From positions 1 through 7,589 of the IMG/VR virus record IMGVR_UViG_2654587571_000012: a stretch of DNA of 7,589 bases; one strand, given 5' to 3'. This document shows, piece by piece, positions 166 through 2,457 of this stretch. The position numbers and the translations under genes were made by a program. This stretch comes from a virus. Lineage: Duplodnaviria; Heunggongvirae; Uroviricota; Caudoviricetes. Numbering within the stretch: the stretch's first letter is position 1; every line of letters begins with the position of its first letter. Under the pieces are notes generated by a model. The model was given only the letters and a program-made list of their open reading frames with translations, had not been told where the DNA came from and did no database searches.

Positions 166-190
166 TGTAGTGGTCAAGTAATATTGGCCA
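166..190. repeat. IS terminal inverted repeat (IRR, orfB-proximal)
   Basis: tgtagtggtcaagtaatattggcca is the imperfect reverse complement of 1399..1423. The orfB stop (174..176) lies inside it. Confidence 0.8.
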
Positions 191-920
191 CGGTTTTACA
201 GTAAAAATGGTATCTGTTCTCTGACTCTTCCGGCGTCAGCCCACCGTTATAATGGTGAGGTCTGACGCTGTTGTAGTAGTTCAATATGTAATCATTAATT
301 TGCTGCCGGGCCTCGTCCTTGCCTGCGTAACCATTCGTTGGCACCCATTCTGTTTTCAGACTGCGGAAGAAGCGTTCCATGGGGCTGTTATCCCAGCAGT
401 TTCCCCGCCGACTGACGCTTTGATTTATTCTGCAACGCCAGAGAAGTTGTTGATATTTAAGGCCTGTATACTGGCTTCCCTGGTCGCTATGGAACACGAC
501 ATCCCGGGGTTGGCCACGCGTCTCATAGGCCATCCGCAGGGCACTGCTTATCAGTGCGGTATCGGCATGCGCTGACAGACTCCAGCCGATAACCCTGCGG
601 GCAAAAAGATCCATAACAACCGCCAGATAGCACCAGCGATTTCCTGCCCAGAGATACGTAATATCTCCACACCATACCCGGTCTGGCTCCGGTACTGCGA
701 ACTGACGCTCAAGCAGATTCGGCAGGCTGGTATGCTCCTGACGGGCATTTTTATACTGATGTTTTCCGGGCTGACAACTGCTCAGGTTCAGATATTTCAT
801 CAGACGTCCGGCACGGTAACGGCTCATCGGGACGCCGTTTTGAGTCAGCATTTCAGCCAGAGTGCGCGCGCCCGCAGAGCCCCGACTTTGGTTCCACGCC
901 CGGCGTATTTCGCTGCACAA
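174..920 (-). CDS. IS3-family transposase OrfB (DDE integrase/catalytic domain)
   Basis: 248-aa ORF with the motifs [50 protein letters not shown] and NGGLTPEE, which I recognise as the IS3/IS911-type DDE transposase. The same frame stays open upstream to the slippery site near 1092, so the biological product is probably an OrfAB transframe fusion. The M at 920 in the ORF track is a TTG codon. Confidence 0.9.
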
Positions 921-1039
921 CCTGACTCGTGCCGGATTAACCGTATCGCGTCGTTTTCGCCAGTACCGGTAACTGCTGCGGTGTATTTCCAGAGCAGAAC
1001 ACAGGCTGACAACCGTGTGGCTGTCACTTAGTCTGGCGG

Positions 1040-1351
1040 CTATCGTGAACCGTTCAGCGAGTCGGACATTAAGAGCGCGGTAGCCTTTTTTAATATCGTA
1101 TTTTGTTCCTCCAGACGGCGAACTTGCTTTTCCAGCTCGCGGATACGTTGCTGGTCTGGAGTAATGGGTGTGGCAGAGGGCGTAATACCCTGGCGCTCTC
1201 GCCTGAGCTGGCGTACCCAGCTCTCAAGCGTGGTTGAACCGACATTCATCGCTTCACTGGCCTGTCGATATGAGTAGCCCTTATCAACAATCAGCTGTGC
1301 ACATTCCAGCCTGAACTCAGGGGTGAAGGTTCGTTTGGTTTTCTTGTTCAT
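1040..1351 (-). CDS. IS3-family transposase OrfA (HTH / leucine-zipper protein)
   Basis: ORF 1040..1387 with probable start at the ATG at 1351 ([13 protein letters not shown]...), preceded by AGGTG. The C-terminus ...[18 protein letters not shown] resembles IS911 OrfA as I recall it. The KK codons are the AAA AAG of the frameshift heptamer. Confidence 0.9.
1086..1092 (-). other. Programmed -1 ribosomal frameshift site (A_AAA_AAG) joining orfA to orfB
   Basis: The + strand TTTTTTA run at 1086..1092 reads A AAA AAG on the minus strand. A -1 slip changes the reading from the orfA frame to the orfB frame, which is open from here to 174. Confidence 0.6.
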
Positions 1352-1398
1352 TAAGTCACCTGTTTTGTGTTGTGGTGAGAATATCACCTTTCATCAGG

Positions 1399-1423
1399 TG
1401 GCCAAATTTAGTGTGCCACTACA
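1399..1423. repeat. IS terminal inverted repeat (IRL, orfA-proximal)
   Basis: tggccaaatttagtgtgccactaca ends in CA at 1423, immediately abutting terminase coding sequence. Confidence 0.8.
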
Positions 1424-2457
1424 TCCAGCCAGTCATAGACTATCTGTATCCAGGTGGTGAACGGACTGTACGCCGTCCAGATATGGAACGTGATGGAGCG
1501 CGGCGGCGGAATTTCATCCCCCCGGGCGCTGAAAAACATCAGGCCGTCACGGGTCCACATACCCGTGTTTTCACAGATCCAGCGCCCGTTACTCTGGTCA
1601 AGCTCAGACTGATGGATCACGCAGCCATGATGTTCACAGAGGTAGAAAACGCTTTCGGGGCTGTCCTTCTCCCATTTAAGGCCAAAAGGCGTGGATTCAT
1701 CGCCAAATTTCAGATACTGCGCCTCCCCACAGTGCGGGCAGGGCACATAGAAACGCATGAAATGCGCCGACTCGTTGGCCGCTTTTTCGATCTGGCAGGT
1801 ACCTTTGATTTTAGGCGTCGAGCCGCGAATGGATTTTGGCCATACAGAGCCCTCAATACGCTTATCCCCCAGCAGGGTTGGCGAGCCCTCTTTTTCGACA
1901 TCCGGCTCGAACGAGGAAAGCTCGTCATAGCAGACCACGTCCACGGATTTTTCACGGTAGTTTTTGGCGGCTGCACCGCCCAGGCACCAGAAACCGACGC
2001 CCGATGAAAAGCGTTTCAGCGTGAGAGTATTGTCACGATGTTTACGACCCAGCCATGGGGAAAGGTCTTTCAGGCATGGCACGTTCCGAATCGTCGCCTC
2101 CACGTGAGACTTCATAAAATCTTCAGCGGCAGAATCCGTGGGCTGAAAAAGCAGACTGTTTCGGGATTTATGCTCAATAAAATACCCGACCACCCCCAGC
2201 AACATCTTTGTATAGCCAACACGGGCAGATTTAATCAGGTTAACCGTGCGAACCTGGTCGTTACCCATACAGTTCATAATGGCGATCTGGAATGGCAGCG
2301 TTTTCCATTCTCCCTCACCATATGAAGATTCTTTAGGCAGATAATAATTTTGATCAGCCCATTCAACTGCCGTCATTGGTACAACCCTGACCAGAGGCTG
2401 CAGCGCAACCGAAACGGCAGCCATCATATTATTCAGTTGTTGCTCTGATATATTCAT
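1424..2457 (-). pseudogene. A: Terminase large subunit (lambda gpA-like), 3'-truncated by the IS
   Basis: ORF 1408..2514 with probable true start at the ATG at 2457 (MNISEQQ...). It matches lambda gpA from memory ([93 protein letters not shown]). Native sequence stops at about codon 345 of a protein that should be ~640 aa. The last residues and the stop of the ORF are supplied by the IS inverted repeat. Confidence 0.85.

Follow-up and report, generated by a model that had tools for sequence, protein, structure and literature searches.

The window analysed here, the whole stretch of 7,589 nucleotides, is the complete contig JHTD01000058.1 (7,589 bp) of the draft assembly GCA_001266295.1, which was traced by an exact look-up of its truncated terminase protein. 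According to the ORF listing and Pfam, it covers a lambdoid prophage's late region, which is encoded on the minus strand (Table 1). At one end, the large terminase gene gpA is interrupted by an insertion sequence (IS), and the gpA reading frame enters the IS by five codons to give the C-terminus ...DWLDVVAH followed by a stop. The PerC homologue and the YlcI/YnfO (DUF3950) gene located between the lysis cassette and cos are typical moron cargo of EPEC/EHEC prophages. Between the sialate esterase and holin genes, two small-RNA-like units (6779-6960 and ~6990-7100) are arranged in tandem on the plus strand, antisense to the late operon. In each of these, a TTGACA box is paired with a strong intrinsic terminator, and the 3' halves are conserved while the 5' parts are variable. 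The 5' part of a third such unit, truncated by the IS, forms the start of the window, and the intact unit at 6779..6960 shows the state of this left flank before the IS insertion.

Table 1. Features of the 7,589-bp window (window coordinates; a dot in the strand column marks unstranded features).
Feature	Position	Strand	Remarks
Small-RNA-like unit, 5' part, IS-truncated	1..165	+	TTGACA box 58-63; terminator 5' arm 135-143; 3' arm GTGCT 161-165
gct, left flanking triplet	163..165	.	target-duplication copy that belongs to the insertion in the terminator rather than to that in the terminase
IS3-family insertion sequence	166..1423	-	1,258 bp; IRL 166-191, IRR 1398-1423
OrfAB transposase, 392 aa, rve DDE domain	174..1351	-	predicted -1 frameshift, A AAA AAG
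orfA, 103 aa, HTH_Tnp_1	1040..1351	-	Pfam; includes Rfam isrC match 1233-1355
Truncated large terminase gpA	1408..2457	-	ATPase domain in codons 1-344 (1424-2457)
TCC, right copy of the terminase-insertion target duplication	1424..1426	.	left copy ends the non-IS part of JHTD01000042.1
Nu1, small terminase subunit	2429..2938	-	Pfam
cos, lambda-type cohesive-end sequence GGGCGGCGACCT	3122..3133	-	
YlcI/YnfO (DUF3950) gene	3341-3565	+	
PerC-family regulator homologue	3647-3961	-	
Rz	4427-4951	-	
Lysozyme	5230-5763	-	
Holin	6451-6657	-	
Small-RNA-like unit, intact, complete terminator	6779..6960	+	arms GCCAGCAC...GTGCTGGC, then T-run
Second small promoter-plus-terminator unit	~6990-7100	+	
Sialate esterase (nanS-p type), C-terminal DUF6645 part	7105-7578	-	ORF listing, Pfam

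The IS has the termini TGTAG...CTACA, and its inverted repeats are imperfect, matching at 20 of 26 positions. The first-pass annotation of this DNA had described an IS3-family element with clear inverted repeats and intact orfA and orfB at 166-1426. The family, the start and the repeats were upheld, and the reading frames were confirmed by Pfam and by identical copies in RefSeq, but the element ends at 1423; intact relatives read ...tttcagtgca/tccagcc (a slash marks a junction here and below), and tcc at 1424-1426 is therefore native terminase sequence. The length was also backed by a contig of the same size consisting of a lone, related IS (90.5% identical), the termini of which coincide with the contig ends. 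A length of 1,261 bp was rejected, since the top BLAST matches looked longer merely because those copies also target TCC. Perfect 3-bp duplications were found around other copies of the IS (TCC, TCC, ACG and GCT).

Pfam detected HTH_Tnp_1, HTH_21 and rve domains (rve, 6e-27) in the ORFs of the IS. A slippery site, A AAA AAG, lies at 1085-1091 in the orfA frame, and a -1 shift at this site is predicted to yield an open 392-aa OrfAB. The DNA of the element is 100% identical to RefSeq copies annotated as intact 'IS3 family transposase, programmed frameshift'; the RefSeq feature WP_085968792.1 is placed on DNA identical to that of OrfAB in the window, and many E. coli records contain identical copies. 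Its size falls within the range of 1.2-1.55 kb, its ends are TG...CA with imperfect terminal repeats, and a DDE (rve) catalytic domain is combined with an N-terminal HTH (Pfam). The overlapping orfs contain an A6G-type motif for a predicted -1 frameshift, and the window combined with contig JHTD01000042.1 (see below) gives TCC as the target duplication, for which 3-4 bp is expected. Thus, as far as can be read from sequence, the element shows every defining feature of the IS3 family. RefSeq names it just 'IS3 family transposase'.

Two side observations concern the element itself. An Rfam search of the window returned a single match, the isrC model ('Hfq-binding sRNA'; 150 bits) at 1233-1355 on the minus strand, which lies wholly within the 5' part of orfA. 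The isrC family thus appears to describe the leader and coding sequence of an IS3-family transposase. In addition, the exact 28-nt left end of the IS occurred in 43 contig stretches among GTDB representative genomes, both in Enterobacterales (Serratia, Mixta, Rosenbergiella, Yersinia and Pectobacterium) and in marine Gammaproteobacteria (Pseudidiomarina, Shewanella, Paraglaciecola and Alteromonadaceae MAGs), mostly at contig ends. This distribution reflects either identical termini of related IS elements across orders or contamination.

The two sides of the IS do not match each other. On the left, the terminator of the small-RNA-like unit is cut within its 3' arm, after 5 nt (GTGCT) of the stem; on the right, the large terminase is interrupted inside codon 345 of the 642-codon gpA. 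The flanking triplets, gct (163-165) and tcc (1424-1426), differ, and no direct repeat surrounds the IS within the window. In all of these respects, and in calling the two flanks unrelated in origin, the first-pass annotation was accurate. Window positions 1-330, which include the left junction, are 100% identical to prophage A of strain 602687. This strain has the same IS (1,258/1,258) inserted at the identical terminator position, in the holin/sialate-esterase interval of an otherwise intact lambdoid prophage. Positions 1-165 are identical (165/165) to both strain 602687 and O145:H28 strain RM12581. On the right side of the IS, a single mismatch in 6,166 nt separates the window from the intact prophage B of strain B19374. 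The terminases of prophages A and B are only distantly related (65% identity in protein, 68% in DNA). Judged by these identities, the flanks of the window derive from two different types of lambdoid prophage. A tandem duplication inside one prophage was considered and rejected because the left unit and the intact one (6779-6943) share only 92% identity. Homologous recombination between the terminases of the two prophages was likewise set aside, given the DNA identity of 68%. Among 5,426 complete E. coli genomes, the junction between the IS and the terminase was found in none, and the hybrid arrangement (unit, IS and terminase) was also absent; just the left junction was present, in strain 602687.

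A simple insertion into the terminase was modelled in silico, the ORFs expected for the terminase 3' half were derived, and these were then looked up by exact sequence. A candidate ORF of 286 aa was recovered as the terminal gene of contig JHTD01000042.1 (19,693 bp), which belongs to the same assembly, GCA_001266295.1. The same 286-aa ORF was found on a second Logan contig, from run SRR19671049. JHTD01000042.1 ends with ...cagtgcaTCC/TGTAGTGG..., in which 95 nt of the left end of the IS follow the terminase sequence; in window orientation, this end reads ...ggatctttcagtgcaTCC/TGTAGTGGTCAAG..., and its IS part is identical to window positions 166-260. The 4,003 non-IS nucleotides before the junction match the intact prophage of B19374 at 100% identity and encode the nuclease domain of gpA, gpW, portal, protease, decoration, capsid, FI and tail proteins. 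Together, this contig and the window rebuild the sequence ...cagtgca TCC [IS] TCC agccagtc..., in which the IS is bordered by a perfect 3-bp duplication. Both junctions between the terminase and the IS were also observed in Logan contigs of SRR19671049, an independent run.

An unrelated metagenome scaffold with a run of N (1289-1388) in the same terminase gene yields an identical 286-aa C-terminal fragment. Because this scaffold gives the same call, the presence of the protein in a database is by itself no proof of an IS junction. Despite this look-alike, JHTD01000042.1 and the second Logan contig of SRR19671049 carry the junction unambiguously. The event in the terminase gene is thus a simple insertion with a 3-bp duplication, and nothing was deleted.

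This result bears directly on the main proposal of the first-pass annotation, in which about 300 codons of the terminase were considered missing and the arrangement was ascribed to a deletion mediated by the IS. The codons are present on JHTD01000042.1, where they abut the left end of the IS with TCC. Loss of the terminase 3' half and of the region beyond it, through an adjacent deletion or one between direct IS copies, would fit the unrelated flanks and the lack of a direct repeat in the window. Such an event would have eliminated the second junction and the intervening DNA, and both are found in the same assembly. The terminase 3' half, gpW, portal, and head and tail genes are all there, and the TCC-IS junction with the terminase 3' half and the complete head/tail set occurs both in the assembly and in SRR19671049. 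The cognate junction with TCC, together with the terminase 3' half and the late genes, therefore refutes the deletion, which would survive only if JHTD01000042.1 represented a duplicated copy of the prophage or a mixed culture, and we consider it very improbable. The annotation itself had held that its proposal would fall if the terminase 3' half lay immediately beyond the window start or if a matching direct repeat appeared; in substance, this is what was found, with the 3' half standing against the left end of the IS, preceded by the matching TCC, on another contig.

Foreign DNA on the left side would likewise result if the IS had moved by one-ended or read-through transposition and had brought at least 165 nt of its old left flank along into the terminase, although nothing speaks for such an event specifically. 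The terminase on JHTD01000042.1 directly abuts a genuine IS end with a normal 3-bp duplication (TCC/TGTAG), and flank transduction is not a known behaviour of IS3-family elements. We regard this event as having a negligible probability, and deletion and the other readings of this kind remain very improbable even when taken together.

The same annotation had concluded that the prophage cannot package its DNA, and this holds as far as its own terminase is concerned. The insertion separates the ATPase domain of gpA (PF05876), found in the window, from the nuclease domain (PF20454), found on JHTD01000042.1; hence, the prophage's own terminase is inactive. The gene is disrupted under any reading of the linkage in the window.

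How the small-RNA-like unit came to stand next to this IS is a separate question. Identical IS ends follow two different left flanks, one ending in gct (the window) and the other in tcc (JHTD01000042.1), and the genome must therefore contain at least two copies of the IS. As expected for a collapsed repeat, at least two copies with different flanks thus occur in the same assembly. JHTD01000042.1, with the cognate left flank, halts 95 nt into the IS, and JHTD01000058.1 traverses it entirely, with one left and one right flank; this is typically seen when a collapsed repeat is assembled with arbitrary flanks. The Logan contigs of SRR19671049 stop 27 and 29 nt into the IS, which together with shared flank bases corresponds to about k-1 (k = 31), as would be expected if the IS were multicopy in that run. 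Short-read (de Bruijn) assemblers generally fail to traverse this IS: elsewhere, contigs break 77 or 127 nt into it, or the IS forms a contig of its own.

We therefore propose the following sequence of events. The IS transposed in the ordinary way into codon 345 of gpA in a lambdoid prophage and duplicated TCC. The window retains the right junction of this insertion (CTACA/TCCagcc), and the left junction (...cagtgcaTCC/TGTAG) lies at the end of another contig. Window positions 1-165 belong to a second, identical IS copy, whose left flank they form; this copy is located in the small-RNA terminator of a different prophage, exactly as in strain 602687. The assembler would have joined the flank of copy 2, the IS and the flank of copy 1 through a collapsed exact repeat longer than the short reads. 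The linkage of unit, IS and terminase is probably an assembler join and not a chromosomal rearrangement. Both junctions, the duplication and the presence of at least two copies are read directly from contigs, and an artefactual linkage is what their pattern most likely signifies. A literature search for the assembly and run accessions found no matching publication.

The main alternative is a real homologous recombination between the two IS copies, that of the prophage A terminator and that of the prophage B terminase. Such an exchange would be reciprocal (an inversion, translocation or duplication), and the chromosome would contain unit A, the IS and the terminase 5' half in this order and, elsewhere, the terminase 3' half, the IS and ggctgttttt. 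The deposited contig does have this order and formally links both flanks, which counts against an assembler join, and all three examinable junctions are compatible with an exchange, as a reciprocal event such as an inversion would yield the same set. Relative to their late operons, the two IS copies are oriented alike, so that recombination between oppositely oriented prophages would produce an inversion. Moreover, in closed genomes this IS often lies between flanks that are unrelated (ypjA/ymfQ, ypjA/GTPase and autotransporter/lsrK), and real exchanges do occur. Against these points, the sole support for an exchange comes from how one 7.6-kb draft contig passes through an exact repeat of 1,258 bp, and no complete E. 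coli genome contains the hybrid. An exchange would also be an extra event on top of a terminase insertion that must be very recent, given its absence from the 5,426 complete genomes, its perfect duplication and flanks 100% identical to B19374. We therefore consider an exchange rather unlikely, though worth keeping in view, and favour the assembler join. As an observation in its own right, the copies at ypjA/ymfQ, ypjA/GTPase and autotransporter/lsrK in closed genomes lack a target duplication, and the ypjA left junction is common to strains while the right flank differs. These copies of the ypjA and lsrK type are genuine IS-associated rearrangements at other sites.

The left flank is of interest as a target site. 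In O145:H28 strain RM12581, the IS occupies the same phosphodiester of the terminator in the opposite orientation, with a perfect GCT/IS/GCT arrangement (positions 6166 and 7423 of the compared stretch). In strain 602687, the IS is inserted in the direct orientation, as in the window, with GCT/IS/ATT (positions 12165-12166 and 13423-13426 of the compared stretch). Because the same phosphodiester is occupied in the opposite orientation in RM12581, the site has been hit independently. The right triplet in 602687, ATT (13424-13426), is followed by ggctgttttt and has the correct length but the wrong sequence for a GCT duplication; it could be the retained 3-nt spacer of an IS circle junction.

With Rfam, the small-RNA units gave no match, either at gathering thresholds or at permissive E-values over 6650-7120. 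Prophage small RNAs encoded between nanS-p and the holin gene have been described as Pas sRNAs and anti-sRNAs (bioRxiv 10.64898/2026.05.13.724894; PMC4104026). The units in the window resemble these in several ways: they lie next to the holin operon, vary in their 5' part, keep a conserved 3' end that includes an intrinsic terminator, and occur in several copies per genome. This likeness is one of position and architecture, and an identity as PasA or PasC is putative. Tentatively, we suggest that the 3' arm of this sRNA terminator, in a gene that is probably of the PasA type, may be a recurrent, base-precise target of this IS in both orientations and in separate lineages; the proposal is a serious possibility, although we stop short of calling it probable. 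If it is true, terminator insertions would create the terminator-less PasA-3 alleles of the ST32 complex and would seed identical IS copies in different prophages that are able to recombine. A terminator-less 'PasA-3' allele has been reported for the ST32 complex (bioRxiv 10.64898/2026.05.13.724894), and an insertion of the RM12581 type may correspond to it.

A 7-mer, TCAGTGC, precedes the insertion point by one base in the terminator flank (window 155-165) as well as in the native terminase (positions 3990-4000 of the compared stretch), with a chance expectation of ~0.002, and a relative in Mixta reads ccagtgca/IS. No motif like TCAGTGC was present in 39 other left flanks, and its register relative to the duplicated triplet is displaced by 3 nt between the terminator and terminase sites. 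The coincidence is possibly due to chance.

The findings reported here are not new in kind, since the disruption of prophage late genes by IS elements, the role of IS elements as portable homology and mis-joins at repeats are all known. Their biological weight is small, as the knock-out of a terminase by an IS is a routine step in prophage decay, and genomes are known to rearrange through identical IS copies shared by several prophages. The recurrent insertion into an sRNA terminator offers a minor lead for research on prophage sRNAs. The main lesson concerns method: an IS with hybrid flanks in a short draft contig should not be taken for a rearrangement until the other contig ends have been checked, that is, until the cognate junction and the target duplication have been sought in the same assembly.

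Compared with known systems, the element shows no essential difference from the IS3 family (IS911/IS3-like elements; copy-out-paste-in, with OrfA and OrfAB produced via -1 frameshifting). It shares with these a comparable architecture, namely a length of 1,258 bp, TG...CA ends, imperfect repeats, the putative A AAA AAG frameshift site, an rve (DDE) domain and 3-bp duplications. The contig pattern has the features of a collapsed-repeat mis-join, in which one contig contains the whole repeat with one left and one right flank and the other flanks stop within approximately one read length; in the present case, as opposed to known mis-joins, this status is deduced from the contig pattern. Lambdoid prophages in pathogenic E. 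coli are inactivated and shuffled by IS elements, as exemplified by IS629 in O157. The locus described here is similar to IS629-type shuffling in that an IS breaks a late or morphogenesis gene of a prophage and identical copies in several prophages provide portable homology. Unlike in IS629-type shuffling, it is the insertion that is demonstrated here, and the exchange is a candidate only.
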